Assembly (NCBI GenBank): GCA_003551305.1
Contig: PUMJ01000050.1
Span: 12,073-76,072, forward strand
Direction: 5' to 3'
Source of the DNA: Candidatus Brocadiaceae bacterium
GTDB lineage: Bacteria; Planctomycetota; Brocadiia; SM23-32
Length of the DNA stretch: 64,000 bases
This document shows, in pieces, positions 11,132 through 50,470 of this stretch. Position 1 is the first letter of the stretch. Each line of letters opens with the position of its first letter. The notes under the pieces are model-generated. The model was given only the letters and a program-made list of their open reading frames with translations. It was not told where the DNA came from and ran no database searches. A program made the position numbers and the translations under genes.

Positions 11132-12024
11132 TCAGTAGTTTTCCAGATATTCGTCCGGTTCCATCCCGTCCATCAGCTCGCGCCAGAACGAGGGGGACGG
11201 TCGGTTGACCTCGACCATGACCTCTTCGGCGTCCTCGAGGAACTCGTGGAGGGCGCGGGTGAGGGGCAGTTCGAAGCCGCGTCGTTCGGCCTCGGCCAGG
11301 TAGTAGGCGAGTTGCCCGGACTTGACGCCCACATCCGTCGCCCTGCCCTGGGGTATCAGGTGGGCGAGGTCGGCCAGTTCCCGGCGCCATCCGTCCTCGC
11401 CGCCGACGCCGCGGATGACGGCCTCCAGCTCTGCGCCGGCCCGCACGCCCAGGGCCAGCGCCTCCAGCAGGGCGGCGCGGCGCAGGCCCATGGCAAGCTG
11501 GTTTACGCCTTTGACGACCTGGCCGCAGCCGCTGGGCCCGCAGTAGACGATGTGGTCGGGCTCGCCGAGCACCTCCAGCAGGGGGCGGTGGCGCTCGAAC
11601 ACGGCCCGCTCGCCGCCGGCGAACATGCGCAACGTGCCGGCCCTGGCCCCGCCGGCCCCCCCGCTGACGGGCACGTCCAGCAACGTGGCGTCGCGCTCGG
11701 CGAACTCGTTGGCCAGCCGGCGCGTCCGGGGTGGCGCCACTGTCCCCAGGTCTATGAATACCTGGTGCGGCCGGGCGTTGGGTACAAGCTCCGCCTCGGC
11801 CACCTCGACGAAGGTCCGGGAATGGGGCAGGGAGGTCAGCACGGGGTCGGCCCGGCAGGCGACATCGGCGGCGGATTCGGCGGGCGCCGCGCCCGCCTCC
11901 ACCGCGACCTCCAGCGCCTCGGGCGCGATGTCGTACGCGATCAGGGGGTAACCTGCGGCGAGGAGGTTGCGCGCCATGGGCCCGCCCATGGACCCGAGTC
12001 CGATAAAGCCGGTTTCCGAGGACA
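11132..12024 (-). CDS. NAD(P)-dependent oxidoreductase, 3-hydroxyisobutyrate dehydrogenase / 6PGDH-like family
   Basis: N-terminal GFIGLGSMGGPMARNL dinucleotide-binding motif. Start taken at MSSETGF (12024), not the upstream extension. Lies 21 nt upstream of dprA on the same strand. Confidence 0.8.
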
Positions 12025-12235
12025 TGTCGGGTTCTCCGATCAGTGAGTAGGTGCGGTTTGCCCGAGCGGGGCCGTGCGGCTCCAGTATACGAGCCGGCGG
12101 CAGGCTTTGCACCCGCCACGGGGAGCGCCGGGTACTTGACACCGACGCCTCGTGATAATAGGGTAAATGGTACGTGGCGGGTCCATTAGGAGCGCGCCAT
12201 GAGGTTCTCGAAGCTTACCGGAGGTTGAGCGGGCC

Positions 12236-13966
12236 ATGATTGCTCTGTCAGATCGTCGCTGGCCGTTTGCTGCCGTTGCTCTGCTGGTGGTGGCCCTGGC
12301 GGTTGCCGTGCTACCTACCGGTTGCGGCAGACCGGATGATCCGGAGTTTTACGTCCAGCAGTTGGCCAGCGAGCGGGACGAGACGCGGCGACGCGCCATT
12401 GAAGAGCTGACGCGGATGCAGGAGCGCGCCATACCCGCCATCGAGGAAGGGCTGCAAAGCGACGATCCCCGGGTGCGTTCCGCCTGCCTGCAGGTGCTGG
12501 GCAGGACGCGCCGGATAAGCTCCCTGCTGACGGCCGGCGAGATGCTGGACGACCCCGACGAGGACGTTCGCCTCCAGGCCATCGAGACAGTGGCCGAACT
12601 GTCCGCCGTCTGGACCGAGAGGAGCACTGAACTGCTGGGCAAGGCGCTGCGCCAGGACAACCCCGAGGTGATCCAGAGAGCCGCCCAGGGTCTGAGGGAA
12701 CTGCACGAAGCCGAGGCCATCGAGGTACTGCGTCAGGAGTATGAACAAGGGGATGGGTTGTCCGCCATCTATGCCGCCCGCCACCTCTACGAGGAAGAAC
12801 CCGCGCCGGAGATCGCGCGCTTCCTGCTGGAATCGGTGCGCGCGGGCGCAGATGATGAAATCGAGGCCGCCCGCTCCGCCCTGAAGGAGCTGCAAGACCG
12901 CATCGTGCCGGAACTGGTCGAGTTCGCCGGCCGGCACGGCGGCCGCCCGGAGGAGTTGCTGATCGAGACCCGCGACGACCTGATAGCCGAACTGAACCGA
13001 ATACTGGATGCCCGACGGGCGCAGGACATCCTGGCCGCCCTCGGCGTGATAGCCGATGAGCCGAGCGTCGAGAAGCTGATCACCGACATGCAGGACACGC
13101 GCCTGCAGAGTTCCTGGCGCGTGGCGGCGGCCGACGCCCTGGGCACGGCGGCCGCCTCCGACCGCAGCACCCGCCCGCTACGGCGCCGCATCACCGAAGC
13201 GCTCAACCAGACGATGGACAGGGGCAGGGAAGACAACCGCGTCCGGATAGCGGCGGCCATCTCCCTGTGCCGGCTGCGCCAGGACTCCGGTGTCGAATAC
13301 CTGCTGACACAGCTCGACCGGTTCCAGGACATCGTCGGCGGCGAGCAGAGGCTCAGCGGTTCGGAACTGGACGCCCTGAAAGAACTGCGCATCCGCGCCC
13401 AGGAAGCCCTGACGGCCTCCGGCGAGTTCGTGGTCGAGCCCCTGCGCCAGAGGCTCACGGCGGATGAAGAACCCGGCCCGATCATCATCTGGGCGGCGGT
13501 CAAGACCTTCGGCGAGCTGAGGGTCGATGACACGGTGCCGCTTATGCGCCGGTTCATCCTGGACCGGCGCGAGCCCACCGAACAGCGTCCGCTCATAGAG
13601 GTCCGGGAAGACGGGCAACTGAGCGTGGAAGTGGTCCTGCCCAACTGGCAGGAACCCGACGAACAGGAAGTCCGGGCTTTGATCGACGAGCTGGAGCCGT
13701 TCAGGTATCCGGAATACGTGCGATGGACGGTGGCCAACGCGCTGCGGCAGATAGGCGGGCAGGAAGCCGAGGACATCCTGGCCGAGGCCGCCGGCGAGAA
13801 GCAGGACTTCGTGGACCGGCTGCGCGCCAACCAGGACCTGCGGGACTACCACATGCGCGCGCCCGTCATCGAAGGGCTTATTGCCCGCCACGAGGATGTG
13901 CTCTTCTACGTGAGGCTGGCGATGGAGCAGCTCGGCATGCCGCTGGTGGCTCAGACGGGGTCGTAA
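12236..13966 (+). CDS. HEAT/PBS-lyase repeat lipoprotein
   Basis: Lipoprotein-type signal (..LPTGCG) followed by many HEAT-like repeats (DP.VR..A...LG). Confidence 0.7.
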
Positions 13967-16378: not shown

Positions 16379-17730
16379 TCACGCACCCCGGCCGCCGCCG
16401 GAGACCGCCGGCTCGGCCCGCACCGGATGCACCTGGCCGCCCATGCTGCGCGCCATGCCTGCGTACTTCGGCGCCATTTTCACGCGCAATTCCATGGTGG
16501 TCTCGCCGCAGTTCGTCTCCAGCACATGTCCGTTCTCGTGCAGGAACGCGATCAGGCGGCCGTTTTCGACGCCCGCCACGACACGGAAAGCCTCCAGCTT
16601 CCGGTCCAGGGCCCGGCAAACCTCCTCCCGCACCTCGTCCAGCCCCTGGCCGGAGACGGCGCTGGTGCATATGACCTCTCCGACCAGCTTCCGCAGCAGC
16701 GGCAGCTCGGACAGGTCCTCCACCAGGTCCGTCTTGTTCAGCAGGTACAGGGTCGGCTTCCCGCCGCAGTCCACCACGCGCAGGGCCTGCCGGACGGATC
16801 GGACCTCCTTCTCGGCGTTGTGCCGGGAGGCGTCAATGACGTGCAGCAGCAGGTCGGCCTGGCGCGCCTCCTCCAGCGTGGCGTGGAAGGAGGCGACCAG
16901 GTGGTGCGGGAACTTGCGCACGAAGCCGACCGTGTCGCTGATAAGTGCCTTGCGGCCGCCGGGCAACTCCCACTCGCGCGTGCGGGTGTCCAGCGTCTCG
17001 AACAGCCGGTCCCGCACCGAAACCCCCGCGCCGGTCAGCGCGTTCATGATGCTGGACTTGCCGGCGTTGGTATAGCCGACCAGCGCCACCGTGGCGAACT
17101 GGTCGGTGCGGCCCTCGACCATCGTGTGGCGGCGGTCTTCGACCCGGCTCAGCGACTCCTTCAGCTCGTGGATGCGCCGCTGCACCAGGCGGCGGTCCAC
17201 CTCGAGCTGCTTCTCGCCGGGGCCGCGCACGCCGATGCCGCCGCCTGCCGGCCCGCCCAGGGTGCCGCCGGCCGTCCGGTCCAGGTGCGTCCACCTCCGC
17301 TTCAGGCGCGGCAGTTCGTACTCGAGCTGGGCCAGCTCCACCTGGAGTCGCGCCTGCTTGGTGCGCGCGTGCGAGGCGAAGATGTCCAGGATCACCTCGC
17401 TGCGGTCAACCACCTTCAGGTCGAGCTTCTGTTCCAGTTTCTTCACCTGGGCGGGGGAGAGTTCGTCGTCACAGATGACGACGTCCGCATTCCGGGCGTC
17501 GCATAACTGCGCCAGCTCCTCCACCTTGCCCTTGCCGACGTAGCAGGCCGGGTCCGGCTTATTCCTTTTCTGGCGAATGCGCCCCACCACTCTGGCGCGC
17601 GCGGAATGCGCGAGGCTGGCCAGCTCCTCGAAGGCCGCCTCGTGGTCCACCTCGTCCCCCCAACCGGCCACCTGCACAAGGACGGCGCGTTCTGCGCGCA
17701 GCGCCAGGTCCGTTCTTCTCAGCTCTGCCA
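16379..17730 (-). CDS. hflX: GTPase HflX
   Basis: HflX N-domain plus G-domain (VALVGYTNAGKSSIMNALTG, DTVGFVRKFPHHLV). Start taken at MAELRR (~17730). Confidence 0.9.
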
Positions 17731-18160
17731 TGTGGCTCCAATGCTTTGAGTGAGAGGTCAACCCGCTCCCTGCGGGCCTATCCTCATTATATGAGCCCGC
17801 CGCCCGGAACGCCACCCCGTCCGTCCCGACGGACTCGTGTTGTCGGGGCGCCGCCGCCCCAACGGGACGCCGCTCCGAAAGAGCGCCATATACCAGCCCC
17901 GGGCGCAGCCCGGGGTCCCCCGAACGCCCCCGAAACCCGCGCCCTGAATGGGCGCCACAGGGGTTGCAGGAGGAATGCGTGGCATCCGCCTGCCCTGTCT
18001 GCGTGCAAGGCGCAGGCCGGCGCAAACCGGCAGTCGGAAAAAGCGGCGGCAAGCGGCGCGCTCACAGAGCGCGCCGCACTCCAGGGGACGCGGCCCGGAC
18101 GATGCAGGGCTGTGCGACATGCACGAACGGTGATCACTGGAGTCCGGACCGGCGTTTCGT

Positions 18161-19385: not shown

Positions 19386-21241
19386 CTATTCGAGGATGTC
19401 GTAGAGGACGGCCCCGTCGGCATTGCGGGGAACGGGCAGGCCGGCGGCCGTCGCCAGGGTCGGCGCCACGCTGGTTATCAGCGTCGGCCGCTGTCGCCGG
19501 TAGCCGCTGCGGACGCCCGGGCCGGCCACGATGAAGTAGGAGTCGTCCCGGTGCGAGCCGGCGTTCAGCAGGGGCCAGTCCCACGTGCCGGTCTCCTGGC
19601 GGGTGTGTTTGCGCCAGAACTCCTGGCGGGACATGATGTCCTCGGGGTTGCGCGCGGTGGGCCAGAGGAAGATGTCGCCGACGCGGTCGCCGCCCACGCC
19701 GAGCCGGCGGGCCTTCTCCCGCGGCAGCACGGCCCAGTACGAGGGTTGCCCCAGCCGGTTGGTCACCTGCGAGAGGGCGGAGATCATCTCTCGGCGCAGG
19801 GACTCATACTCGGCGCCCGGCTTGACGATGCCGTCCGGGTCGCGGCCCTTCACGTTCAGGAGGACGTAGTGCTTACGGCCGTAGGCGATCGACCGGCTCC
19901 ATTCTATGGCGCCGTCGGGGCCGTCCACGAGCCACCCGTACCCGCGCAGCACGTCGTTGATCTTCGGGTGGGGATGACGCACGGGCAGTTGCGTGTCGCC
20001 GCCGTGGTCGCTGACCAGCGCGACCAGCGCTTCCGGCCCGGCGGCCTCCATCACGCGCCCGACAATCTGGTCCCCCCAGCCCATGATGTCGTCCCACAGC
20101 GCCCAGCCCTCCCCGGCGCGCTCGGGCTCGTACATGGGGTGGCGGGGGTCAATCATGTACATGGTCAGGTGGTTGGTCCAGTCCGGCCCGTGCCATTTGA
20201 GCATGAACAGGTCCCACTCGTGGCTGGTGAGGACGTGGCCGGCGGCCTGGCGCCACCAGCGGGCCAGGTGCTTCTGCTCCTCGAAGTAGGTGGCGATGTC
20301 GCAGGCGCCGGCCTGCACCACCTGCTGGCGGGAGCACTGGATGATGAACGGGCCGCACGCTTCCAGCAGTTCGTCGGTCAGCCCCCGCGGGTGCACGAAC
20401 TCCTCCAGCGGGTATATCTCGCTCAGGTAGAGGTGCACGCGGGAGGCGTCGGGCTCCAGGATGAGCAGCTTGCCGCGCAGGCCGGCGCGCACGTCCCCGC
20501 GGTCGGTGCTGAAGGTGTGGTGGACCCATTCGCTCATCCGGTCGAGTTCGAAGACCAGGAGGGGCTGGTCCCCGCCGCGTCGGGCGTACAGTTCGACGCG
20601 CTCGTAGCCCCCGGCCCCCTCGAGGATGAGGGCGTGGAGCGGCTTGACGCTCTCGTAACGGCTGGCGCGTCCCGGCCGTATGCTGACCTTGAAATAGAGC
20701 GCGCCTTCCGGGGCGCCGGGCCAGTCTTCGGCGGGCTGCGGTGTGACGGGGGTCACGTGGCACTGCACCCGGTAGTCGTCCAGCGAGCGGGGGTGCGTGG
20801 TGTAGGCGCGGGCCTCCTGCAGGGCGCGAATGGCGTTGTCGGGGCGGCCGTCCTCACCCACGTGAACCAGCCCGTCCTCGACGGTGAGGGGCCAGGAATG
20901 GGCCCAGTCGAAGACGACGGACCGGCCCCCCTCGCGGCGGACCGCCTCCCAGAGATGCTCCGCCTTGCAGACGGAGGAAGGGAAGCCCCTCACCCACTCG
21001 TCCAGCGGCCGGCCGGGGAAGTGGGTGCTCATGTTGCAGCCGCTCACCCAGGGGCTGGCGCCGGTGGAGAGGCAGGCCCAGTTCGTGCCTGTCTCGAAAG
21101 GAAAGCACGGCCACGTCTGCGTGGTGCTGCCGCGCTCGATGAGGCGCTTCACGTTCGGCATGACCCCGCGCTCGACGAACTCGAGCAGCGTGGGCAGCGA
21201 GATGGAATCGAACCCGACAACGGCCACTTTTCGGCTCTTCA
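19386..21241 (-). CDS. Alkaline phosphatase superfamily protein (type I phosphodiesterase / nucleotide pyrophosphatase-like)
   Basis: N-terminal metal-site region VAVVGFDS and the LVSDHGG motif. Start taken at MKSRKV (21241). Confidence 0.7.
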
Positions 21242-21535
21242 TTGCTATCGTCTCCCGGGGTGATTGCCTTTCGGCGCGTATCAACAGGGTCTCGGCGGGG
21301 TTGAGTCGACGTGCGGCGGATTGCCGAGTGCGTCGCCGTGCACGCCGAACAGAGCATTGCGGTCTCCCGTTCCGGAACCGGTTGCCTTCCGCTATGTCAT
21401 TCCTGAGCCACGCATTGGCGGCAAGAAGGGTCTGCGACCCGGAACCGCCGCGGTGCACGGTCCGCCTGCCAGGGGCGTCAAACCTCCAGAACCCCACGCG
21501 AGGAGACCATGGCACGGGCGCCCGGGGCCTGCGCC

Positions 21536-23017
21536 TCAGTGCCGCCCACGGTTGTTCCAACCCGTGCGGGCGCGCGCCTGCTCCAGGTCCACCTCCCGCA
21601 GGTTGGGGCGCAACCGGCCGTCCCGGGCGTGCTCGTCTCCCTGGCGTTCAAAATAGCTGATCAGCCTCTCCCGCCACATCTCCAGCGTGTCTCTGCAGTC
21701 CGGGTCATCGGCCAGATCATGGCAATCGTTCGGGTCGTTCTCCTGGTCAAACAGAAACTCGTAGTCGTCCTGAGCGAACCACATGTACTTCGTGCGGCCG
21801 TCGCTCATGCCGAACACTTCGGCGCACCGGCCGAACGTATAGCTGCGGAACGGCGCCCCGTCGTCCAGAAGCTGCGGCACGAGGCTGCGGCCCTCGACCG
21901 AGTCCGGCACATCGAGGCCGCAGACCTCCAGGATGGTCGGCATGATGTCCATCAGGTCCACCGGCGCGGTGTCGTTGGCCCGACCGGGGCGGAAACCGCG
22001 CTCGGCCGCCCATGGGCGCGGCGGGCGCACGATGAACGGCACGTTCGTGGAGCCGCGGAAGAAGTCGCCCTTCGCCAGGTTGCCGTGGTCGAAAAGCTGG
22101 TCCCCGTGGTCGCTGGTGAAGATGATGAGCGTGTTCCCCAGCAGGCCGTGCTCCCGCAGGTGGCCCAGCAGGACGCCGACGGTGCTGTCTATGTGGGTGA
22201 CCAGCGCCGCGTAACCGCGCAGGCTCTGTTGGATCATCAGCGGGTGGTCGGCATAGTCGTCGTAGTTGTTGCGCAGTTGCAGCGCCCGCACGCGTCCCGG
22301 CAGCTTTCGGTCCACCCAGTCCCCGCGCGCCGGCTCGGGCATCGACGCGTCGCGGTAGAGTTCATAGTAGTCGCGCGGCGGGGTGAGGGGCGGGTGCGGC
22401 TTGTCGAAGGAGACGTGCAGGAAGAAGGGGCGCGTGGGGTCGCGGCGGTCTATGAACTCCATGGCGCGCTGGCCGGTCCAGTGCGTGGTGGTGAACTTCT
22501 CCGGCAGCGGGCTCATCCGAACGCCGTACTCGTTGTTGCCCAGCCCGTGGGTGTAGGCCAGGTGCCCGTAGCCGTTCTCGTCCAGGAACGCCTCGTAGTC
22601 GTCCTTCAGCATGCCTGCGTGGCGGCGGCCTTCCTCGTTGAGCTGGACGTCCTCGAAGCCGATGCGGTTGCGCTGCGGGTGGGTGTGCAGCTTGCCGGAC
22701 GCGAATGTCTGGTAGCCGGCGCGGGTCATCACTTCGGCCAGCTTCGGGCCCTCGGGGAAGGGCTGCTCACTGTTGCGGTCCATGTGGATCGAGTAGGTGC
22801 CCAGGCCGGTCATCATGATGCGGCGGGCGGGCACGCAGACCGGGCACTGGCTGAAGGCGCGCCGGAAGTTGACACCTTCATAGGCTAACTGGTCAATCTG
22901 CGGGGTCATCATCGTAGGATGCCCCCCGACCCCCAGCCAGTCGGCGCGCAGGTGATCGCAGCATATCAGCAGAACGTTCGGTCTCGCGGGGTCCCGCGCC
23001 GGGTCCGGCATGTTCAC
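21536..23017 (-). CDS. Sulfatase (formylglycine-dependent; C-x-P-x-R = CVPAR)
   Basis: LLICCDHLRAD...CPVCVPARRIMMTGL, the classic sulfatase N-terminus. Confidence 0.9.
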   Translation of the reverse strand: MNMPDPARDPARPNVLLICCDHLRADWLGVGGHPTMMTPQIDQLAYEGVNFRRAFSQCPVCVPARRIMMTGLGTYSIHMDRNSEQPFPEGPKLAEVMTRAGYQTFASGKLHTHPQRNRIGFEDVQLNEEGRRHAGMLKDDYEAFLDENGYGHLAYTHGLGNNEYGVRMSPLPEKFTTTHWTGQRAMEFIDRRDPTRPFFLHVSFDKPHPPLTPPRDYYELYRDASMPEPARGDWVDRKLPGRVRALQLRNNYDDYADHPLMIQQSLRGYAALVTHIDSTVGVLLGHLREHGLLGNTLIIFTSDHGDQLFDHGNLAKGDFFRGSTNVPFIVRPPRPWAAERGFRPGRANDTAPVDLMDIMPTILEVCGLDVPDSVEGRSLVPQLLDDGAPFRSYTFGRCAEVFGMSDGRTKYMWFAQDDYEFLFDQENDPNDCHDLADDPDCRDTLEMWRERLISYFERQGDEHARDGRLRPNLREVDLEQARARTGWNNRGRH

Positions 23018-27099: not shown

Positions 27100-28215
27100 T
27101 CATAGGCGTTTGAACTCGGCGGCGACGGCGCGGGCTTTCTCGAAGGAGACCGGCGGAGGCAGCACGCCCGCTGAGGTGAGGAATATCCCGCGCCTGTCCG
27201 GGCACCGCTCCAGGTCGGCTGACACCTCGGCCACTATCTGCTCGACCGGCGCCAGCCAAAGCGCGGCGTTGGTGCCGCCGATGAGGGCCTTTGACGGCAT
27301 GCGCGCCCGCCCCTCGGCCAGGGTCGTGTCGCCGACCGGGGGCGTCGTGTACGCCTCGTTGGCCTGGGCGGGCAGCTCGTCTATCATCTCCAGCAGGGCG
27401 TTGAGCGTACCGCACATGTGGTGGACGGCGATCTTGCCGTGTTCGATGATGATATCCCCGTATTCGCGAAGCTGCGGCATGCAGAACTCGCGGAACATGG
27501 CCGGGCTGATCAGCGTGGTGCTCGTGTTCTCCGAGAGCCAGAAGCTATCGGCCGCCACCCGGGGCAGCAGGGCCTCGAGCTCGCGCACGCGGTCGCGGTG
27601 CATCAGCTCCACCACCTCGCGGAAAAGCTCCGGTTCGTCGTGCAGAAGGTAGGTGGTGTTCTGCGGCCCGCACTGGTGCTCGACCAGGTCCATCAGGGGG
27701 GAGGGGCCGATGCCCGTCATGGTGAAGGCGTCCCGCGCCTCGAGATCTTTCCGGCGAGCGGCCCACTCCTCGGCCTTCTCGGTCGGCACCGCGAAGGTCG
27801 TATCTTTGAACAGCCAGCGCAGGCGCCGGAGGTTCTCGGCGCTGTCGGCGGGGAACTTCGTCGGGTGCCAGCTCTCCGTATAGGGGTCGTAGGTCTGCTC
27901 AGCCACCAGGGGGCCGTCGGGCGTCTCCATGGTCTTGCGGCGCACGCCGTCTTTCTCGGAGGTCGTTATCTCGACGTGCGGCGTCTGTTTGCGCGCCCCT
28001 CCCCAGCAGCCCAGCATCAGGTCACAACCGGCCGCCCGGAGCAGTTCCTCGGCGCCCATGTCGCAGTAGGGCCCGGGCTGGGAGGATTGCCAGGTGCGGT
28101 TGGTCATCTTCAGCCAGACGGGGAAGCGGTCCACCTCCTCGCCCCGGATGGTGGCGAAGATGCGCTCCCGGTTGGTCATCGTCTCGGTGCTGCTACCTGC
28201 CTCTGCGGCCGCCAT
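27100..28215 (-). CDS. Uroporphyrinogen decarboxylase (URO-D) family protein (paralog)
   Basis: URO-D-like. Convergent with the previous gene. Confidence 0.7.
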   Translation of the reverse strand: MAAAEAGSSTETMTNRERIFATIRGEEVDRFPVWLKMTNRTWQSSQPGPYCDMGAEELLRAAGCDLMLGCWGGARKQTPHVEITTSEKDGVRRKTMETPDGPLVAEQTYDPYTESWHPTKFPADSAENLRRLRWLFKDTTFAVPTEKAEEWAARRKDLEARDAFTMTGIGPSPLMDLVEHQCGPQNTTYLLHDEPELFREVVELMHRDRVRELEALLPRVAADSFWLSENTSTTLISPAMFREFCMPQLREYGDIIIEHGKIAVHHMCGTLNALLEMIDELPAQANEAYTTPPVGDTTLAEGRARMPSKALIGGTNAALWLAPVEQIVAEVSADLERCPDRRGIFLTSAGVLPPPVSFEKARAVAAEFKRL

Positions 28216-28299: not shown

Positions 28300-29499
28300 C
28301 TATTGCGCAGCCCAGGAGATCGAGAGCACGTGGACCCCCCGTCCCGACATCTGCCGCACGCACTTGCGCTCCAGAACCCCCGAGCGCACGACGTCGGAGA
28401 CGAGCAACGCAGACTGGCCGGCCTGAACCGCGGCGTCCAGGACCGGCTCGACGTGGCGATCATCCGGCCCGCCGGGCCTCGCCCGGAACAGGTCCCGGCA
28501 GGGCACGCCGAGCAGCCGGGCCACTTGCCGCGCCAGGGGCCGGCAGTCGCTATGCCTGTCAGCCGGCGGGTGCGTTACGAAGTCGAACGTGCCGAGTTCG
28601 GCCCGCTCATCCAGCAGGCGGACGGTGTCGGCGGCCATCTGCAGGCCAAATTCGTCATCAAGCCCCCGTGACCACTTGCCGAACGAACTTCGCTCCGCCT
28701 CGCTTAGCGCGTCCCACTGCCGCGCCGCGAAGGCCCCGAGGGTCACCCGCGGCACGTGGCAGTAGCGTTCATTCTCGGCAAACGAGCCGGAGAACTCCCA
28801 GGCGAGCGTGGACTCGCGGGCGGCTTTCATGGTCTCCCGCAGAGGTTCGACTTCCGGCCGGTAGGGCGTGTAGCTGACCACGACCTTCAGCGCCGCCGCG
28901 TGTTCGCCCCGCGATGGGTCCTGCCGGAACGCCTCGATCTCAGCCTCCAGCGACGAGGCCACCGAGCGCGCCTCGCCCTCGTCGGCATCCGGCAGGGCAA
29001 CCATGAACTCCCCGGGCCCGATGCGCCCGACGGCGTATCCGCCACCCAGCCGGGTGCGCAGAAGGCGCGCAACGTGCTTGACCAGCGCGTCGCCGACCGC
29101 GTAGCCGTACTCGTGGTTGAGCTTGTTCAGGTTCATCAGGGCCACATTCACCAGCCATGCCCGCCGGCCGACGTCGCCCGACTCCATGCGCCACTGGTCA
29201 AGCTCGCAGATAATGCCACTGCGGTTGGGCAGCCCCGTCAGGTCGTCAATCATCCCGTCTCTGTCCTCCAGCAGGCGGCGCGCTCGCCAATGGCCCTGCG
29301 CCGCCAGCACCGAAACGGGTACTGACAGGACGAATCCGCCCCAGATGCCGATGCGCATCAACGGGCCCGCACCGCTCCTGAGGGCGGACAGGGCCATCAA
29401 AAACAGGAATCCGCTGAGCGCCAGCGTAACGAACAATATGCGCCGGCTGGACCGGCGCATCCTTGCGCCCGCGCCGTCCGCCTGCACGGCCACATCCAT
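28300..29499 (-). CDS. Membrane protein: 2 TM + degenerate GGDEF (GPGEF) domain + C-terminal ComF-like phosphoribosyltransferase domain
   Basis: RIGPGEFMVALPD is the GGDEF-core position. C-terminal ALLVSDVVRSGVL is a type I PRTase PRPP-loop-like signature. Start MDV follows GGAGGAGGGAAG. Confidence 0.7.
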   Translation of the reverse strand: MDVAVQADGAGARMRRSSRRILFVTLALSGFLFLMALSALRSGAGPLMRIGIWGGFVLSVPVSVLAAQGHWRARRLLEDRDGMIDDLTGLPNRSGIICELDQWRMESGDVGRRAWLVNVALMNLNKLNHEYGYAVGDALVKHVARLLRTRLGGGYAVGRIGPGEFMVALPDADEGEARSVASSLEAEIEAFRQDPSRGEHAAALKVVVSYTPYRPEVEPLRETMKAARESTLAWEFSGSFAENERYCHVPRVTLGAFAARQWDALSEAERSSFGKWSRGLDDEFGLQMAADTVRLLDERAELGTFDFVTHPPADRHSDCRPLARQVARLLGVPCRDLFRARPGGPDDRHVEPVLDAAVQAGQSALLVSDVVRSGVLERKCVRQMSGRGVHVLSISWAAQ

Positions 29500-30083
29500 A
29501 CTTCCCTCCTCCCTCCGCCACGTGCCGGCAGCGCCCCGGCGCCCCCCGTCCGCTGGGTCGCCGGCGTTTCCCGAACCTGCACTCGCTTCGTGGCTGATGC
29601 ACCAGCTCACCGCAAGCCCGAAACGGCATGGCCCCGGTGGGCTCCGTCACACCGCAAATATTACGAAAAATCGCGCCCCATTTGCAAGACATTGCGCGCG
29701 GTGGCCCTATTCAGGGAGCCGGGCCACCGGGTGCGGCCTGCTATCTTGCCGGTTACAGGAGATCGGTCCACCCCCTGATTTCTCAGGGCAGGTCGCTCGC
29801 CGGAGTGGGCGGGATTGCGAGCGCAAGGGCCAGGGTAACCACAACGACCACCACGAGGACGGGCTTCCTTCGTCCGACAGGAGGCGAACTTCGGCGCCGG
29901 GGCGACGAGGGGACCGTCCGGACGCGTCGGCGGCTAACTTCGCTATCGGAGCGGAAGACGACTCGGCGCGAACATGGCGACAGGGCCAGGGCCGGCCAAC
30001 AGCCGGTCGCTGTCGGGCACATTCTCCCCAAAGAGGCAGGCGCACATGCGCAGCGGCGCACCCTGCACTTCTACCGCGAGGCG

Positions 30084-30092
30084 TGCTATAGT
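30084..30092 (+). promoter_or_regulatory. Extended -10 element (TGcTATAGT) upstream of the membrane protein gene
   Basis: TATAGT at 30087-30092 with an upstream TG. Lies about 60 nt upstream of the candidate GTG start. Confidence 0.3.
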
Positions 30093-30149
30093 GGGTGGTC
30101 TGGCCCGCACGGGTCGGACCGCAATCCGCTCCCTACCCCACTGGCCGTC

Positions 30150-31493
30150 GTGGATTCCATTCAACGTCGCTATCTGAGGTTTTACTGGCCCCTGGCCCTG
30201 ATGGGCGTGGTGTTGCTGACGGGTCGGCTGGCGCAGAACTTCGTGCTCCTGCATTACGAGGCCGGGGTGGAGGAGCTGGCCGTATATGCCCTGGCGCTGG
30301 CCGTGTTCGGGCCCTTCCGCGCCGCGCTGATATTCGTCTCCCAGATGACCAACGTGCTGGTGCGCGGGCCGAAGTCCTTCCGGCACAGCCTGCGGTTCGT
30401 GACCGGCATTTCGCTGGTGCTGACCCTTCCCATAGCGCTGCTGGCCTGGACCCCGCTGGGCCCGATGCTGCTGCCCTTCATCTACGACGTGCCGCCGGCA
30501 CGCATAGCGCGCATAGTGCTTTACATGCGGTTTTTCACGCCGCTGATCCTGCTGGAAGGGCTCAGTCGCTTCGGGGAAGGGCTGCTGGTGCAGGCGCACC
30601 GCACGGCAACCGTCACGGTGATGCACGCGCTCGAACTGGCGCTCCTGGCGGGGGTGCTGGCAACCGGTATGTGGCACGGCTGGGACCCCGTGCTCACCAT
30701 CAGCCTGTCGCTCATTCTGCCGCGCGTCCTCTACCTGGTCCTGGCCGCCGGGCTGGCGGCTCTCTTCCATCACCACCGGCATCCGGAAGAGGACAGCGCA
30801 CTGAGCCTGCGGGAGATGCTGGCCTTCTTTCTGCCCATGGCCGGCACGTCCATCCTTTTCTCCCTGACGCGGCCCATCATCTACGGATTCGTCACAGCGC
30901 TGAACCCCACGGGTGACCCTGCGCTCCCCAACGTGGACGTCATCGTTGCCGTCGTCAGCCTGGCCTCCACCTTCGAGGCCATCTTCCTGGGCGCCGTCAA
31001 CCAGTTCCGCCACCTGATGGTGACGTTCGGGCGGGACGAGCTGGCGCAACTGCGGCGCTTCATGGTGCGGACGACGGCCGTTATCACGGGCCTGATGCTG
31101 GTGGTGGTGGCCACCCCCCTGGCCGAACTGTTCTTCCGCTACCTGCAGGGCGCCACGGGGGAGACGCTCCGCATGGTGCGGCAGGCCGTCTGGGTCACGC
31201 TCGTGGTGCCGGGGGCCATCTGCTGGCGCAACTACTACCACGGGCAGGTCATGGTGCATCGCCGCACGGGCGGCATGCTGGTGGGCGCCCTTATGCGCGA
31301 CCTGTCGGTGCTGGTCGGCGCGGCGGCGCTCTCGGCCGTCGGCCTCTACAACCACGTCACGGCCACGGCCATGCTCCCCCTGGCCTTCAGTTCCGAGGCC
31401 GCTACGGTCATGCTCCTCACCCGCTCCTGGCTGCGGGCCGCCGGCCAGCCCGGCCGGGACCGCCAGCCGGAGGCCGAGCCCGCCCCCGATTGA
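30150..31493 (+). CDS. Multi-pass membrane protein, MOP-superfamily (MATE/Wzx-like flippase) candidate
   Basis: About 12 TM helices. Start assigned to GTG 30150 after the -10 element; the frame is open upstream, so the start is uncertain. Confidence 0.45.
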   Translation: MDSIQRRYLRFYWPLALMGVVLLTGRLAQNFVLLHYEAGVEELAVYALALAVFGPFRAALIFVSQMTNVLVRGPKSFRHSLRFVTGISLVLTLPIALLAWTPLGPMLLPFIYDVPPARIARIVLYMRFFTPLILLEGLSRFGEGLLVQAHRTATVTVMHALELALLAGVLATGMWHGWDPVLTISLSLILPRVLYLVLAAGLAALFHHHRHPEEDSALSLREMLAFFLPMAGTSILFSLTRPIIYGFVTALNPTGDPALPNVDVIVAVVSLASTFEAIFLGAVNQFRHLMVTFGRDELAQLRRFMVRTTAVITGLMLVVVATPLAELFFRYLQGATGETLRMVRQAVWVTLVVPGAICWRNYYHGQVMVHRRTGGMLVGALMRDLSVLVGAAALSAVGLYNHVTATAMLPLAFSSEAATVMLLTRSWLRAAGQPGRDRQPEAEPAPD

Positions 31494-34515: not shown

Positions 34516-37179
34516 ATGACAAGCCGGCAGAGAGACGGCGCCGGGGCGCCGATGCAACTGCGATGTGAATACCTGACCGACCCCCTGGGCATCGAGGAGC
34601 GCGTGCCGCGCCTGTCGTGGGTTGTCAACGACGAGCGCCGGGGCGCCATCCAGACCGCTTACCAGATCCTGGTGGCCGCCTCCCGGGAGTCCCTGGCCGC
34701 CGGAGACGCCGACGTTTGGGACAGTGGCCGGGTCGAGTCCGACCGCTGTGCCCACGTCGAGTACGACGGACCGGTGCGCGAGTCCCGCCGCCGCTACTGG
34801 TGGAAGGTGCGCACCTGGGACGCCGAAGGCGCCGCTTCCCCCTGGAGCGAGCCCGCCTGGTGGGAAATGGGGCTGCTGGAGCCGGCCGACTGGACGGCCG
34901 AGTGGATAGGGATGCGGGACGAGCGCCGCCCCCAGCCTGCCACTTACCTGCGGCGCGAATTCCGCCTGGAGCGCCCCGTGCGGCGCGCGCGGCTCTATGC
35001 CACCGCGCTCGGCCTCTACCTGCTTCGCCTGAACGGCCGGGCGGTCAGCGATGACGTCCTGGCGCCGGGCTGGACCGACTACCGTAAGAGAGTGATGTAC
35101 CAGACCTATGACGTGACGGACATGCTGCAGGACGGCGCGAACGCGCTGGGTGCCGTGCTGGGAGAAGGCTGGTACTGCGGCCAGATAGGGTGGGGCCAGG
35201 GGGAGGACCAGTTCGGTGAGCATCCCCCGCGCCTGCTGGCGCAACTGGAGGTGGAGTTTGAGGACGGCGTCACCCAGCGGGTGACCACCGACGGCACATG
35301 GCGCTGCGGCGAAGGCCCCATCCGCCGCTCCCAGTTCTACGACGGGGAGCGCTACGACGCACGCCGCGAGATGCCCGGCTGGGACCGGGCGGGTTTCGAC
35401 GACGCCGACTGGCAGCCGGCCGAGACCTTCGAGGACGCCGGCGCCGAGCGCAACGCCCGGCAGCACCCGCCCATCCGCGTCACCGAGGAACTGCGCCCTG
35501 TGGGCGTAGAGGAGATTGAGCCGGGCAAGTACGTCTTCGACATGGGTCAGAACCTGGTCGGCTTCTGCCGCCTGCGCGTGAGGGGGCCGGCCGGCACGGA
35601 GGTGACGCTGCGCCACGCCGAGGTGCTCAACGACGACGGCACCCTCTACACGGAGAACCTGCGCAAGGCGAAGGCCACCGACACCTACGTGCTGCGGGGC
35701 GGGGAGGAGGAGACTTTCACGCCGCACTTCACCTACCACGGGTTCCGCTACGTCGAGGTGACCGGCTACCCGGGCACGCCCGACGAGGACGACCTGACAG
35801 GCCTGGTTGTGCACAACGACTGCGCGCCGGCCGGCCGCATCGAGACGTCTTCCGAGATGGTCAACCGCCTGCAGCGCAACATCGTGTGGGGGCAGCGCGG
35901 CAACATGCACAGCGTGCTGACCGACTGCCCGCAGCGCGACGAGCGGCTGGGCTGGATGGGTGATGCGCAGATGTTCGCGCCCACGGCCTGCTACAACATG
36001 GACATGGCGGCGATGCTGACGAAGTTCGCCCGCGACATGATGGACGAGCAGACCCCCGAGGGCGCCTTCCCCGACGTCTGCCCCTACCTGAGCCCGAAGG
36101 GCCTGCTGCCCCCGGCCGGCGCCCCCGCCTGGATGGACGCCGGCGTCATCGTGCCCTGGACCGTTTACCAGTTCTACGGCGACCGGCGCATCCTGGAGCG
36201 GCACTTCGAGAGCATGTGCCGCTACGTGGACTACGTCAGCGGCGAGAACCCGGAGGGCATCTGGGAGAACGCGCGCGGCAACGACTACGGCGACTGGGTG
36301 CCGGCGGGCGAGCAGACGGACAAGACGATGTTCGCCACGCTGAACCACTTCTACTCCACCACGCTCACCGCGCGGACGGCCCGGGTGCTGGGCCGCGAGG
36401 AGGCCGGCGAGAAATACGAGGCCCGCGCGCGGGCGGTGCGCGACGCGTTCAACGAGCGCTACCTGCGCGAGGACGGAACCTACGAGAACGCCACCCAGAC
36501 CGTCTGCGCCCTGGCCCTTGCGTGGGGCGTTGCGCCGGAGGAGCACCGCGCGTCCGTGGCCGACGACCTGGTGGCCAACATCGAGGGGCGGGGCGGGCAC
36601 CTGTCCACCGGTTTCGGCGGCACGCAATGGCTGCTGCCGGCCCTGTGCGGGACGGGGCACGAGGACGTGGCCGTGCGCCTCCTTCTGCAGCGCGAGCAGC
36701 CCTCCTGGGGCTACATGATCGAGAAGGACGCCACCACCATCTGGGAACTGTGGGACAGCGACACCGCCGGGCCGAGCATGAACTCGCGCAACCACTTCGC
36801 CTACGGCTCGGTGGGACAGTGGCTGTTCGGCTGGCTGGCCGGCATCCGCACCGAGGCCGACGACTGGGCGCAGTTCAGCGTCACGCCGTGCCCCGCCCCT
36901 GCCGGGGGCGAACTGACCCGCGTTAGGGCGACCTATGCCTCCATCCGGGGCGAGATAGTGACCGAGTGGCAGGTGAACGACGAGGGACTGGAAGTGACGG
37001 TGCGTGTGCCGGCCAACAGCCGGGCGACGCTCAGTCTGCCCGCGTCCGACCCCGAAGCGGTTACCGAGAGCGGCCGGCCAGCGGCCGACGCGGAGGGCAT
37101 AAGCGCCGTTCGAGCAGAAGACGGGCGCGTCATATATGGTCTATCCGCAGGCACTTACATGTTCACTGTGCGGGAGTAA
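34516..37179 (+). CDS. Alpha-L-rhamnosidase (GH78)
   Basis: GH78 N-terminal motif (LRCEYLTDPLGIEERVPRLSWV) and an (alpha/alpha)6 catalytic domain; 887 aa. Confidence 0.9.
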   Translation: MTSRQRDGAGAPMQLRCEYLTDPLGIEERVPRLSWVVNDERRGAIQTAYQILVAASRESLAAGDADVWDSGRVESDRCAHVEYDGPVRESRRRYWWKVRTWDAEGAASPWSEPAWWEMGLLEPADWTAEWIGMRDERRPQPATYLRREFRLERPVRRARLYATALGLYLLRLNGRAVSDDVLAPGWTDYRKRVMYQTYDVTDMLQDGANALGAVLGEGWYCGQIGWGQGEDQFGEHPPRLLAQLEVEFEDGVTQRVTTDGTWRCGEGPIRRSQFYDGERYDARREMPGWDRAGFDDADWQPAETFEDAGAERNARQHPPIRVTEELRPVGVEEIEPGKYVFDMGQNLVGFCRLRVRGPAGTEVTLRHAEVLNDDGTLYTENLRKAKATDTYVLRGGEEETFTPHFTYHGFRYVEVTGYPGTPDEDDLTGLVVHNDCAPAGRIETSSEMVNRLQRNIVWGQRGNMHSVLTDCPQRDERLGWMGDAQMFAPTACYNMDMAAMLTKFARDMMDEQTPEGAFPDVCPYLSPKGLLPPAGAPAWMDAGVIVPWTVYQFYGDRRILERHFESMCRYVDYVSGENPEGIWENARGNDYGDWVPAGEQTDKTMFATLNHFYSTTLTARTARVLGREEAGEKYEARARAVRDAFNERYLREDGTYENATQTVCALALAWGVAPEEHRASVADDLVANIEGRGGHLSTGFGGTQWLLPALCGTGHEDVAVRLLLQREQPSWGYMIEKDATTIWELWDSDTAGPSMNSRNHFAYGSVGQWLFGWLAGIRTEADDWAQFSVTPCPAPAGGELTRVRATYASIRGEIVTEWQVNDEGLEVTVRVPANSRATLSLPASDPEAVTESGRPAADAEGISAVRAEDGRVIYGLSAGTYMFTVRE

Positions 37180-40864: not shown

Positions 40865-41905
40865 TCAGAGGTCAGCGGGTTGCCTCTTGCGGGCGGAGCG
40901 TTCCATGGCGAGGATGACGCGTGTGACCTCCCGGCCGTCCTCGAACCCGACCAGGGGCTGGTCGCCGGAGGCGACGCAGTCCACGAAGTGGCGGATGCTC
41001 TCGGTGGCGAAGCCGACGCGCCGGCCGTGCACGGTGGGGGAGATGAATGTGTCCGGGCAGTGTGGCCCGTCCTGTGCGATGTGCACCAGCCTGTGCGGGC
41101 TGCCGTCGAAGTGGAAGGCCCCCCGCTCACCGACGACCTCCAGCTTGAAGTCCACCAGGCTCGGGCTCGCCTCGGGCAGTATCCAGCACGTCTCCAGCAG
41201 CGCCCGCGCGCCGCGGCGGAACTCGATGATGGACATGTAGTAGTCGGGCGTCTTGATGTCCATCCCCGCCAGCACGCGGCTGTCACTGACGGTGTAAACC
41301 CGGCTTGCCTGGTCGTCCAGCAGCCAGAAGAGCGTGTCCAGGCAATGGCTGCCCAGGAACCAGTTGACGCTTGAGCGCCCGGCCCAGGGCAGCATCTGTG
41401 TGGGCACGAACAGGGTATCCGACAGGCGGCAGTAAACCATCCTCACCTCCCCGAGCAGGCCGGCCGCGACGTCCCGACGTATCTGCACCACGCCGGGGCT
41501 CCAGCGGTTGTGGAAGTCCACCATGAAGGGGACGGGGTTGCGGCTCAGGGCCTCGCCGATGCGGTCGCAGTCTTCCAGGGTGGTGGCCAGGGGCTTTTCA
41601 ACCAGGACGGCTTTGCCGGCTTCAACGGCGGCCAGGACGATGTCGGCGTGGGTGAAATCGGGGGTGACCACGGAGACGGCGTCCACGTCGTCCCGCCGCA
41701 TCATCTCACGGTAGTCGCGGTGTGTGGCCACGGTTCCGGTCCGCGCCGCGGCCTCCTGCAGGCGGTCGGCGTTCATGTCGCACAGGGCGGTGAGGCGGGC
41801 GCGCGGGTGGTCCAGGTAGGTCTCCAGGTGCACTTGCCCCCAGGTGCCGAGTCCGATGACGCCGAAACGTGCCCTCTGCATTGCGGCCCTCCCTTGCCGA
41901 AGCAC
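40865..41905 (-). CDS. Gfo/Idh/MocA family oxidoreductase
   Basis: N-terminal Rossmann fold (RFGVIGLGTWGQVH) plus the GFO_IDH_MocA C-terminal domain. Confidence 0.85.
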   Translation of the reverse strand: MLRQGRAAMQRARFGVIGLGTWGQVHLETYLDHPRARLTALCDMNADRLQEAAARTGTVATHRDYREMMRRDDVDAVSVVTPDFTHADIVLAAVEAGKAVLVEKPLATTLEDCDRIGEALSRNPVPFMVDFHNRWSPGVVQIRRDVAAGLLGEVRMVYCRLSDTLFVPTQMLPWAGRSSVNWFLGSHCLDTLFWLLDDQASRVYTVSDSRVLAGMDIKTPDYYMSIIEFRRGARALLETCWILPEASPSLVDFKLEVVGERGAFHFDGSPHRLVHIAQDGPHCPDTFISPTVHGRRVGFATESIRHFVDCVASGDQPLVGFEDGREVTRVILAMERSARKRQPADL

Positions 41906-41908
41906 AGG

Positions 41909-43156
41909 TCAGTAGGCGGCCCAGGCGGCCACCTGCAGATGGGCGCCGGCGGCGGAGAGCTTCTTTACGCACCGGCGCTCCAGGATTCCGGAGCTGATGA
42001 CGTCGGAGATGAGCAGGGCGCCTTCGCCCTTGTCAATGACGGCGTCCACGGCCGGTTCGATGCTCCTGCTCTCGGGACCGCTGCTGTCGGCGCGCATGAC
42101 GTCGCGGTAAGGGACGCCCAGTTGCCTGGCGACGGCCTCGGCGAGCTGACGGGCCGGATACGTGCGGCCGCCGCCGGCCCCGCCGGGCGCCGGCACGGCG
42201 GTGACGAAGTCCACCCAGTTGGTCTCGGCTTTCTCGTCCAGCAGTTTCACGATGTCGTTGCACATCGTCTCGGTCACGACATCGCTCAGCTCGCGTTTCC
42301 AGAGCTTGAAAGCCTCCTGCTGGGGTTTGCTCAGGCTCTGCCAGCGGTGCGCGGCGAAGGCGCCGAGGGTCACCCGCGGCACGTGGTAGTAGGTCTCTGT
42401 CTCGTCCCCGGCGGTCTCGGGCAGCTTGCCGTGGGCGGTGGCCTCCTTGGCGCTGGTAACGGTCTCGTGCAGCGATGCGCGTTCCGGCACGTAGTCGGCG
42501 ACGCTGACGCGGGCCTTCAGCGAATGGACCTCGCCGCGCTCGCCCAGGCTCAGCCGATAGTCGGAGACGACCTGCTTGAGGGTATCTGCGAGGGACTCGG
42601 CCTCCGAGACGCTGGCGTTCGGCAGGATGACCAGGAACTCGTCCCCCCCTAAGCGCCCGACAATGTAATCCTCTGAGGCGGCCTCGCGGATGAGGCCGGC
42701 CAGGTCCTGCAGGACGGCGTCGCCAACCATCTGGCCGTACTCGTAGTTGACGCGGTTGAGGTTCTCCAGGTCAACGTCCACCAGTCGGATTCTCTTGCCG
42801 AACTCCTGGGGGCCAAGCTCGTAGCGCTCCAGCGCCGCCACCAGCCCTTTGCGGTTGGGCAGGCCCGTCAGGGTGTCGGTCACGCCGAGTTCGGAGGACT
42901 TGCGCCGGGAGTAGCGGCGCGCCTGCCAGTAGGTGCTCACCGCGTAGGCCGCCACCACCAGCGCCCAGACGGGCATCGCCCACAGCAACGCCCTGGGCCA
43001 GATACCCAGGGTGTCCGCGCGACCCAGGCCGACCGCTGCCGTCAGCATCATGCCGAACAGCACCAGCAGCGTGAGGGCCGCCCGGCGGGAGTGGCGATGG
43101 ATGCTGCGCGTTATGACCTCTTCTTCGGTGTCCGACTCATGCCACATCAGACCCAT
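41909..43156 (-). CDS. Membrane protein: 2 TM + GGDEF domain (canonical GGDEF) + C-terminal ComF-like phosphoribosyltransferase domain; paralog of 28300-29499
   Basis: RLGGDEFLVILP, shared linker motif YHVPRVTLGAFAA, C-terminal ALLISDVISSGIL. Start MGLMW follows a GGAGG RBS. Separated from the downstream oxidoreductase gene by 3 nt. Confidence 0.75.
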   Translation of the reverse strand: MGLMWHESDTEEEVITRSIHRHSRRAALTLLVLFGMMLTAAVGLGRADTLGIWPRALLWAMPVWALVVAAYAVSTYWQARRYSRRKSSELGVTDTLTGLPNRKGLVAALERYELGPQEFGKRIRLVDVDLENLNRVNYEYGQMVGDAVLQDLAGLIREAASEDYIVGRLGGDEFLVILPNASVSEAESLADTLKQVVSDYRLSLGERGEVHSLKARVSVADYVPERASLHETVTSAKEATAHGKLPETAGDETETYYHVPRVTLGAFAAHRWQSLSKPQQEAFKLWKRELSDVVTETMCNDIVKLLDEKAETNWVDFVTAVPAPGGAGGGRTYPARQLAEAVARQLGVPYRDVMRADSSGPESRSIEPAVDAVIDKGEGALLISDVISSGILERRCVKKLSAAGAHLQVAAWAAY

Positions 43157-49141: not shown

Positions 49142-50470
49142 TCAGACGATGTCAGCGGCCGGGGTTGTCTTGCGCCCGCTGATATCTTTCAGCAGGGTGG
49201 GTCCGTCCTCCACAAGGGGGTCGGGGCGGCCCCAGCGGGCCTGCATCTGCTCCAGCCACCGGTCCAGGCGGCGTTCCAACTCGGCGGCCACCTCCGGCTC
49301 GGTGTGTATCAAGTTGCCCTGCTCCTCGGGGTCCCGGGCCAGGTTGTAGAGTTCCTTCGGCGCGCTGCCGTGCCAGTTGTGGCGGTAGGTGTCGGAGGCC
49401 GCGCGGATGAACTTCCACTCCCGCGTGCGCACGCCGCGCTTGACCTGCCAGGTGGCCTCCCCCAGGAAGAGGCTCTCGTGGGGGCCGTCTTCCGGCGCGG
49501 GCCCTATGGCCAGCAGGTCGGCGCCTTCCATCGGCTCGGGCACGGGCAGGCCGGCGCGCCTCAGCAGGGTCACCGGCAGGTCGGTCATCTGCGTCAGGCC
49601 TTTCACGCGCTCGCCGGCTCGCTCCGCGCCGGGCAGCTTCATGATGAGCGGCACGTGCAGGTTGGCGTCGTAGAGGCCGTGGTGGTCGAAGGCGCCCTCG
49701 TGCTCGGTCAACACCTCGCCGTGGTCGGAGAAGGCCACGATGAGCGTCTCGTCGTAGAGGCCGCGCTCTTTGAGCGCCTCGAACAGGCGCCAGAGTTGCT
49801 CGCCGTTGTAGGCGATCTCGGCGTCGTACTGGGCCACGACGTAATCGGCGTCGGCAATATCGTCGTCCACCCAGCCAACACCGGGGCTGCCCTGGGCCCG
49901 GCAGCGGCGCATCGAACTGTGCCGGGGGTCGGTCGGGTCGCCCTCGTAGTAGAGTCCGTTATAGGGGCCGGGGGGGAAGTACGGCGTGTGGGGGTCCCAG
50001 TAGTGCAGGAACACCAGGAAAGGGTCGGCGGCGGACAGTTCGTCCATCAGATCGGTGGCGGCGCCGGTGACCAGTTCGCCGTTTCTTTTCTCTCGCTTCT
50101 TTTTGTCGCGGCCCATGTCGGGCCAGGAGTATTGCTCCCACCCGCGGCGGAAGAACTCGGCGTGCCCCTGCAGATTGTCCAGGGCGCAGGTCTGGTAGCC
50201 GGCCGCGGCGAAAAGCTCCGGCAGCCACGGGGCCTCCTCGGGCAGCCCGCGCGGGGGTATGACGCCCGCGATGGCGTGCCCGTAGTCGGGCAGACCGGTG
50301 AACAGCGAGGTGAAGGATGGGTCGGTGGGGATGGAGGGGGCGAAGAAGTTCTCGAACAGCACGCCGTCCTCGGCCAGCGCCTGAAGGGCCGGGCTGGTCG
50401 CCCTCTCGTAGCCGTAGCAGTCCAGGTGGTCGGCACGCAGCGTGTCAACCGCTATAAGAATGATGTTCAT
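49142..50470 (-). CDS. Sulfatase-like hydrolase/transferase (alkaline phosphatase superfamily; no C/S-x-P-x-R formylglycine motif)
   Basis: IAVDTLRADHL N-terminus; the position of the FGly motif reads SIPTD. Confidence 0.7.
   Translation of the reverse strand: MNIILIAVDTLRADHLDCYGYERATSPALQALAEDGVLFENFFAPSIPTDPSFTSLFTGLPDYGHAIAGVIPPRGLPEEAPWLPELFAAAGYQTCALDNLQGHAEFFRRGWEQYSWPDMGRDKKKREKRNGELVTGAATDLMDELSAADPFLVFLHYWDPHTPYFPPGPYNGLYYEGDPTDPRHSSMRRCRAQGSPGVGWVDDDIADADYVVAQYDAEIAYNGEQLWRLFEALKERGLYDETLIVAFSDHGEVLTEHEGAFDHHGLYDANLHVPLIMKLPGAERAGERVKGLTQMTDLPVTLLRRAGLPVPEPMEGADLLAIGPAPEDGPHESLFLGEATWQVKRGVRTREWKFIRAASDTYRHNWHGSAPKELYNLARDPEEQGNLIHTEPEVAAELERRLDRWLEQMQARWGRPDPLVEDGPTLLKDISGRKTTPAADIV

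Follow-up and report, generated by a model that had tools for sequence, protein, structure and literature searches.

A membrane-anchored protein with a degenerate GGDEF domain and a ComFC-derived phosphoribosyltransferase-fold tail

Described relatives of the two domains

GGDEF proteins are usually understood through the domains that accompany them. The protein discussed here, copy 1 of two paralogs in the window (the whole stretch of DNA analysed, 64,000 nucleotides long), combines a GGDEF domain with a C-terminal domain of phosphoribosyltransferase (PRT) fold, here called the tail. The original prediction stated that no such architecture was known to be described, and the literature searched indeed yielded no description of a fusion of GGDEF with PRTase, ComF or Pribosyltran. 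Public copies of copy 1-type proteins carry no informative names either. A GGDEF domain with a ComF-derived PRT tail is therefore a rare and apparently undescribed combination of known domains.

On the GGDEF side, copy 1 resembles degenerate GGDEF sensors such as PdeA/CC3396 and LapD, in which the catalytic motif is destroyed, the guanine-recognition residues are kept, and a second domain is adjacent. We take the GTP-binding GGDEF* domain of C. crescentus PdeA/CC3396, which is degenerate and followed by an output domain, to be a suitable likeness. The partner in the degenerate GGDEF sensors is an EAL domain, whereas in copy 1 it is a domain with PRT-like fold. Binding of c-di-GMP in the manner of PopA or PelD is unlikely for copy 1, because it lacks an RxxD I-site.

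For the tail, the comparison is with ComFC/ComF(GntX) (COG1040; H. pylori ComFC, PDB 7p0h). The zinc ribbon of ComFC is essential. ComFC dimerises, and the physiological ligand and role of its PRT domain are still open questions (PMC9005727). ComFC and ComF(GntX) have a four-Cys zinc ribbon, an RxRGxDQ PPi loop and an invariant flexible-loop Gln, all absent from the tail. In the PRPP loop, the tail has SD..(R/S)SG.L where these proteins have DD..TTG.T. Unlike them, the tail is preceded by a membrane hairpin and a GGDEF domain, and neither comFA nor a competence context turned up.

PurR and PyrR of B. subtilis use the PRT fold as a ligand sensor, without or beside transferase chemistry. This is what we propose for the tail, and the two proteins may be the closest analogy for its possible way of working. 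They control binding to DNA or RNA and their PRPP/nucleotide-binding loops are still recognisable, whereas the tail has a degenerate loop and a GGDEF partner. There is no evidence for a specific kinship of the tail with PurR and PyrR beyond the shared superfamily. A further comparison is with SLOG/DprA-PRTase fusions (e.g. ShosT) and ParB_N-PRTase fusions, which are regarded as enzymes or toxins. According to a motif scan, many of them have the canonical [DE]D-x-x-[TS][TS]G-x-[TS] loop, which has been lost in the GGDEF-fused family, and the copy 1 locus is without defence-island context. Copy 1 thus belongs to the GGDEF and PRT-fold superfamilies, but does not pass for an active cyclase, a PRTase enzyme, or a ComF protein proper.

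Copy 1 and its two domains

The copy 1 gene occupies positions 28300..29499 of the minus strand and encodes 399 amino acids, followed by a stop codon at 28300-28302. The start codon, ATG at 29499, is preceded at a distance of 5 nt by a GGAGG-rich Shine-Dalgarno sequence, GGAGGGAGGAGGG. The open reading frame reaches further upstream, to a GTG at 29610. However, the 399-residue product is identical to the gene product called in public assemblies (P0001/P0111), and the boundaries of the original prediction, which started from ATG 29499, were therefore accepted. The AlphaFold model of the full-length protein has a pLDDT of 83.4.

Near the N-terminus, two stretches are strongly hydrophobic (Kyte-Doolittle >1.6 in 19-residue windows), namely residues 21-40 and 47-68. 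They are separated by a loop of six residues, and together span 29296..29439 (minus strand). The AlphaFold model shows them as a hairpin of two helices, 2-41 and 46-81, in agreement with the two transmembrane segments of the original prediction. Clusters of Arg residues, read from the sequence, flank the hairpin on both cytoplasmic sides, and both of its ends are predicted to be cytoplasmic. Since the loop between the transmembrane segments is so short, there is no periplasmic sensor domain. Copy 1 is thus an inner-membrane-anchored cytoplasmic protein with a GGDEF domain and, C-terminal to it, a ComFC-derived type I PRT-fold domain. The architecture is not a chance match, because a full-length paralog is present in the window and the combination recurs in about 21 clusters.

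The GGDEF domain comprises residues 84-232 (28804..29250, minus strand). Pfam PF00990 matches residues 84-229 (E=5e-17, 62.6 bits against a cut-off of 23.8), TIGR00254 also matches (E=5.6e-16, 58.7 bits against a cut-off of 37.4), and the best of the matching PDB diguanylate cyclases reaches E=5.9e-9. Among the many cyclases that NCBIfam reports, LapD-type receptors also appear, with weak similarity. The active site is degenerate, as originally predicted from the GPGEF that takes the place of GG[DE]EF at residues 161-165 (29005..29019, minus strand). In alignments with 3ign, 4urq and 5m3c, the third, metal-binding acidic residue of the motif is a Gly. The damage extends to the canonical DxDxFKxxN segment, which HMMER comparison with solved cyclases and the family alignment place at ALMNLNKLN, residues 120-128 (29116..29142, minus strand). 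Alignment with the same three structures shows the metal Asp replaced by Ala120 and the conserved Lys by Asn125, so that the acidic third motif residue, the metal Asp and the Lys of active cyclases are all missing. Since Ala120, Asn125 and GPGEF replace the catalytic residues, and neither the two Mg ligands nor the Lys remain, the sequence supports the conclusion that copy 1 is not a cyclase.

Other features of the nucleotide site are retained. Comparison with the solved cyclases shows that copy 1 keeps the Arg that precedes the GGDEF motif, and the guanine-recognition pair Asn128 and Asp137 (the latter at 29089-29091). The pair is conserved in nearly all family members, and we take it to be equivalent to N335 and D344 of PleD. 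The GGDEF domain of copy 1 may therefore still bind a guanine nucleotide. The RxxD I-site, expected five residues upstream of GGDEF, is absent from copy 1 (GGGY) and copy 2 (SEDY), and the family alignment has no RxxD at the canonical position in any member.

The identity of the tail is not apparent from single-sequence searches. On copy 1 alone, PF00156 remains sub-threshold (E=0.18, 11.5 bits against a cut-off of 26.3), as it does in five of six close relatives, and no ComF model matches in the Pfam and NCBIfam scans. A tail profile built from six sequences found 99 matches at E<=1e-3 among 1.84 billion representative proteins. The best 21 (E<1e-10) are mostly proteins of about 400 residues with the tail at the C-terminus, and GGDEF is present in 17 of the 19 that were scanned. 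Among the weaker matches, 77 were scanned; PF00156 was detected in 69 and the ComF-type double zinc ribbon DZR_2 in 18, while fusions to ParB_N or SLOG/DprA-like domains occur in a few. Against the PDB, the best match of the six-sequence profile was a malate dehydrogenase at E=0.035, which is not meaningful. A profile of 23 sequences matched the OPRTase 3m3h at E=3e-5, and nearly all of its weaker matches are PRTases. When this profile was compared by hhalign with 18 zinc-ribbon ComF-like proteins, the match had a probability of 99.3% (E=1.1e-20, 147 columns), started just past the zinc ribbon, and extended to the C-terminus.

Structure comparison gives the same picture. The tail has the five-stranded parallel sheet of the type I PRT core, and shares with ComF/ComFC both this core and the strand and helices that precede it. 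ComFC is the best structural match, with 140 of 155 residues aligned, and PurR, PyrR, 7rmw and 5vog are also among the matches. From the profile searches, the PDB matches and the hhalign comparison, we conclude that the tail is a ComF-derived PRT-fold domain. The original prediction of a PRTase-like fold is thereby upheld, but the domain is larger than the ~100 residues that were assumed. It extends over about 155 residues (245-399; 28303..28767, minus strand), is without zinc ribbon, and is the best conserved part of the family.

The active site loops of the tail are strongly altered. The segment ALLVSDVVRSGVL (residues 364-376; 28372..28410, minus strand) is aligned to PRPP loops by both HMMER and hhalign, with VVVVEDLISTGGS as the counterpart in the OPRTase 3m3h and VLLVDDVxTTGAT in ComF-like proteins. 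The PRPP-loop signature that had been noted in the original prediction is thus correctly located, but it is a remnant, which has only one of the two acids and no TTGxT. The loop reads LLVSDVVRSGVL and departs from the pattern of active PRTases, in which four hydrophobic and two acidic residues precede xx[TS][TS]Gx[TS]. Across the family, the length of the loop is conserved. The second Asp (D369) is its only invariant residue, and the TTGxT positions vary freely; one member, P0024, has kept DD. In the H. pylori ComFC, the PRPP loop is DDIITTGTTL, and the T165A substitution abolishes nucleotide binding (PMC9005727). In copy 1, the residue equivalent to T165 is Leu. Since the residues with which ComFC binds PRPP or nucleotide (DD, and TTGTT including T165; PMC9005727) are not conserved, the suggestion that the tail binds PRPP is weakened.

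The other loops have diverged as well. DFVTHPPA (residues 306-313; 28561..28584, minus strand), identified from the family invariants and hhalign, corresponds to a strand and the start of the PPi loop. It aligns to DVVTxVPxSxxRxRxRGxDQ of ComF, and its F307, T309 and P312 are invariant in the family, but in copy 1 the RxRGxDQ motif is absent after it. The segments aligned to the PPi loop and the flexible loop are short and variable in the family (PADRHSDCR; RARPGGPDDRHVEP). In the 18 zinc-ribbon ComF-like proteins, the invariant residues are four Cys (C16, C19, C30, C33), K85, P120, R129, A138, Q162, L190, D193, D194, T197, G199, L209 and G213. Only the equivalents of P120, A138, L190, D194 and L209 persist in the GGDEF-fused family, whereas the four Cys, K85, R129, Q162, D193, T197 and G199 are absent or variable. 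Copy 1 has no counterpart of the four-Cys zinc ribbon, the tail being preceded instead by the GGDEF domain and a linker, and the tail has none of the RxRGx[DN]Q PPi loop and the flexible-loop Gln (R129 and Q162 in ComF-like proteins).

Despite these losses, mean pairwise identity in the family is 40% in the tail, compared to 33% in the GGDEF domain and 26% in the transmembrane region. The family has conserved residues of its own, namely DFVTxPP, PxR, EPxxD, D369 and LRRC, the last with a nearly invariant Arg (L-R-R-C) after the remodelled phosphate loop. The conserved segments align with the PPi loop, the PRPP loop and the flexible-loop region. Because the conserved residues lie in segments that align to active-site loops, a pocket seems to be maintained in the tail.

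Paralog, family and genomic context

Copy 2, the paralog, has the same architecture. It is encoded at 41909..43156 of the minus strand, comprises 415 amino acids, and was found by tblastn (E=2e-83) with a Pfam GGDEF match at E=8e-24. Identity to copy 1 is 40% overall and 50% in the tail, where LLISDVISSGILE (41978-42016) represents the remnant of the PRPP loop. Aligned to solved cyclases, copy 2 keeps the metal Asp (DVD) and GGDEF (42635-42649), but the Lys of DxDxFK is replaced here too, by Asn, with an Arg one position later. Since this canonical Lys is missing, copy 2 is no more than a candidate cyclase.

To find orthologs, a single genome was scanned for each species. The 15 loci obtained all lie in MAGs that carry the labels Candidatus Brocadiia, Brocadiaceae or Planctomycetota and have a GC content of 64-73%. 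Fourteen are of the copy 2 type, and D[VI]D and GGDEF are present in all of them whose sequence spans this region. The sole copy 1 ortholog, L001, is intact, 63% identical, and has the same class of lesions (NVS, GPEEF); its MAG also carries a copy 2 ortholog, L003. In view of this distribution, copy 1 is best described, on sequence grounds, as a lineage-specific duplicate that has lost catalysis while its reading frame is still intact.

The close relatives come from uncultured Planctomycetota ("Brocadiia"). The architecture is rare, with about 21 clusters (at 50% identity) among the 1.84 billion representatives, and the family members come from metagenomes and MAGs. About half of the more distant metagenomic members have degenerate GGDEF motifs, such as GGSEF, GGREF, QGCSF, VGAEF, TGAEF and GGPQF. 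The tail is kept in all of these, which indicates that the combination of domains is independent of cyclase activity.

Genomic context was compared across 15 loci from genomes and 9 from metagenomes, and no functional partner emerged. Copy 1 is flanked by a divergent gene for a MATE-like membrane protein on one side, and by two URO-D-like genes (Pfam PF01208; 25926-27056, plus strand, and 27100-28215, minus strand) on the other. The MATE-like gene is conserved from about 30201 onwards, some 700 bp away from the copy 1 start, and Rfam at gathering score detects nothing in the interval (29500-30200). The long MATE-like reading frame, 29628-31493, has an Arg-rich and apparently non-conserved N-terminal extension. 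In two other MAGs (loci L006, 7277-8335, and L015, 682-1740), a URO-D-like gene (27% identical) is located directly between the copy 2 ortholog and a GFO oxidoreductase gene, which hints at an older pairing of the GGDEF-PRT gene with a URO-D-like gene.

The neighbours of copy 2 are an M50-CBS peptidase gene on one side and, on the other, a GFO/IDH/MocA oxidoreductase gene (Pfam; 40865-41905, minus strand) that starts 3 nt past the copy 2 stop. According to tblastn, an ortholog of the oxidoreductase gene follows the copy 2 ortholog in 10 of 14 loci (in one case as a contig-end fragment), with variable spacing, and no mechanistic link between the two genes is evident. Other recurrent neighbours of copy 2 resemble, by eye, Ffh, TrmD, L19, SHMT and subunits of 2-oxoacid:ferredoxin oxidoreductase. 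As these wider neighbours look like housekeeping genes, we read the shared neighbourhood as inherited gene order rather than a functional operon. No Rfam riboswitch was found near either copy.

The nine distant-member loci have no common neighbour. P0022 and P0024 adjoin a Flp/Fap pilin gene (L019 307-618) and a T2SSF gene, TadB/C or PilC-like (L020 352-1446). A link to the Flp/Tad pilus was considered but not retained, with two of the nine distant loci in its favour and nothing similar in the other seven. Neither the window nor the 24 related loci have adjacent competence genes or linkage to comFA.

Several other features of the window were recorded. PurF was considered for a weak tblastn match at 22431-22676 and rejected, because the reading frame encodes a sulfatase. 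Several sulfatase/phosphodiesterase-type genes and one for an alpha-L-rhamnosidase are found at 19386-21560, 21536-23017, 49142-50470 and 60743-62215 (minus strand), and at 34516-37179 (plus strand); such genes are typical of planctomycetes that degrade polysaccharides, and they have no relation to the GGDEF-PRT proteins. An Rfam Acido-Lenti-1 sRNA motif at 17871-17915 (minus strand; 37.3 bits against a gathering threshold of 37) lies in the upstream part of the reading frame of an HflX-type GTPase (16379-18052). The permuted tmRNA of 518 nt that ARAGORN reports at 11813-12330 (plus strand) is probably a false positive, since Rfam finds no tmRNA there. A single reading frame at 62321-63607 (minus strand) joins an N-terminal NUDIX domain to an IF-2B-family domain (Pfam 'Initiation factor 2 subunit family'). 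The first 2000 nucleotides (1-2000) have a GC content of 58.5%, compared to about 65-73% elsewhere, and the reading frames there failed the GC3 filter.

Possible functions of the tail

In the interpretation that we favour, at slightly less than even odds (about 0.45), the tail would be a non-catalytic module for ligand binding or dimerisation, copy 1 a nucleotide-sensing adaptor with a dead cyclase, and copy 2 a source of c-di-GMP. The tail would then not be a phosphoribosyltransferase, but a regulatory module like the PRT folds of PurR and PyrR, and the presence of these co-opted folds among its structural matches is consistent with such a role. It might bind a phosphorylated or nucleotide-type ligand from the cytoplasm at the remodelled pocket, provide a dimer contact of the PRT/ComFC type, or both, and could thereby control the pairing of two GGDEF domains. 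Copy 2 and its orthologs would represent the ancestral type; their cyclase site is largely intact, and the output would probably be c-di-GMP. For copy 1, a role as a sensor or adaptor that binds GTP or another guanine nucleotide, possibly in a pair with copy 2, appears most likely, because the guanine-recognition Asn and Asp and the tail are kept while the cyclase site is dead. A common small-molecule ligand across the family is not assured, since the 5'-phosphate loop is so variable.

In GGDEF proteins, sensing is usually the task of N-terminal domains, which argues against the tail as a sensor and for the tail as an output. It might bind a macromolecule, such as ssDNA or a membrane or pilus partner, as ComFC does, with the GGDEF domain as the input, through binding of GTP or c-di-GMP or through local c-di-GMP synthesis. 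We regard this as somewhat unlikely, despite several points in its favour. The order of GGDEF domain and tail presumably resembles that of PdeA/CC3396, with a degenerate GGDEF domain ahead of the output domain. The tail is the best conserved part of the protein, whereas about half of the family can do without the GGDEF catalytic motif. The closest structural relative is ComFC, a membrane-associated protein whose binding of ssDNA does not depend on its PRPP site (PMC9005727). Related ComF-like PRT domains also occur at the C-terminal end of fusions with DprA/SLOG and ParB_N domains, and two distant members adjoin Flp pilin or T2SSF genes. However, the zinc ribbon that is essential in ComFC is missing from the tail, neither the window nor the conserved synteny contains competence genes, and the adjacency to pilus genes is limited to two of nine distant loci.

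A built-in receptor for c-di-GMP or pGpG, which would provide product feedback in place of the missing I-site, is a more doubtful proposition. The absence of a canonical RxxD from copy 1, copy 2 and the family would leave room for such a device, the family-specific Arg of LRRC could contribute to it, and PRT folds are able to bind guanine nucleotides including ppGpp (7rmw and 5vog). Yet no known c-di-GMP-binding motif was identified in the tail, so that the idea is purely positional, and feedback would leave the retention of the tail in lineages with a dead cyclase unexplained.

It is very improbable that the tail is an active enzyme of the phosphoribosyltransferase type, with PRPP as its substrate or else a guanine nucleotide that the GGDEF domain makes or binds. 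The PRT fold, the invariant second Asp, the conserved length of the PRPP loop and the DD of P0024 would fit, but the first acid, TTGxT, the RxRGxDQ of the PPi loop and the flexible-loop Gln are lost or variable, and the Pfam PRTase score stays sub-threshold (11.5 against 26.3 bits). Decay of copy 1 as a duplicate of copy 2 without function of its own, which the lost catalytic residues and the single ortholog among the other scanned species-representative genomes might suggest, is hardly credible for a gene with an intact reading frame, a strong Shine-Dalgarno sequence, all family-invariant tail residues and the guanine-binding pair, and with an equally intact L001 ortholog that shares its class of substitutions.

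The scope of these findings is limited to a small family known from metagenomes and MAGs. Within it, the preferred reading of the tail as a regulatory module lets one ask whether the status of the nucleotide or PRPP pool feeds into c-di-GMP signalling. A PRT fold that is fused to a guanine-nucleotide domain, and kept even with a dead cyclase, also offers a defined soluble construct for ligand tests on degenerate PRT domains. More speculatively, and with low probability, ComF-type PRT folds may be partners of guanine-nucleotide or c-di-GMP signalling, and the tail may represent a new class of membrane-anchored effectors or receptors under the control of c-di-GMP or GTP. If the fusion is a true 'Rosetta stone' in this sense, the tail could reveal the physiological ligand or role of ComFC-like PRT domains.
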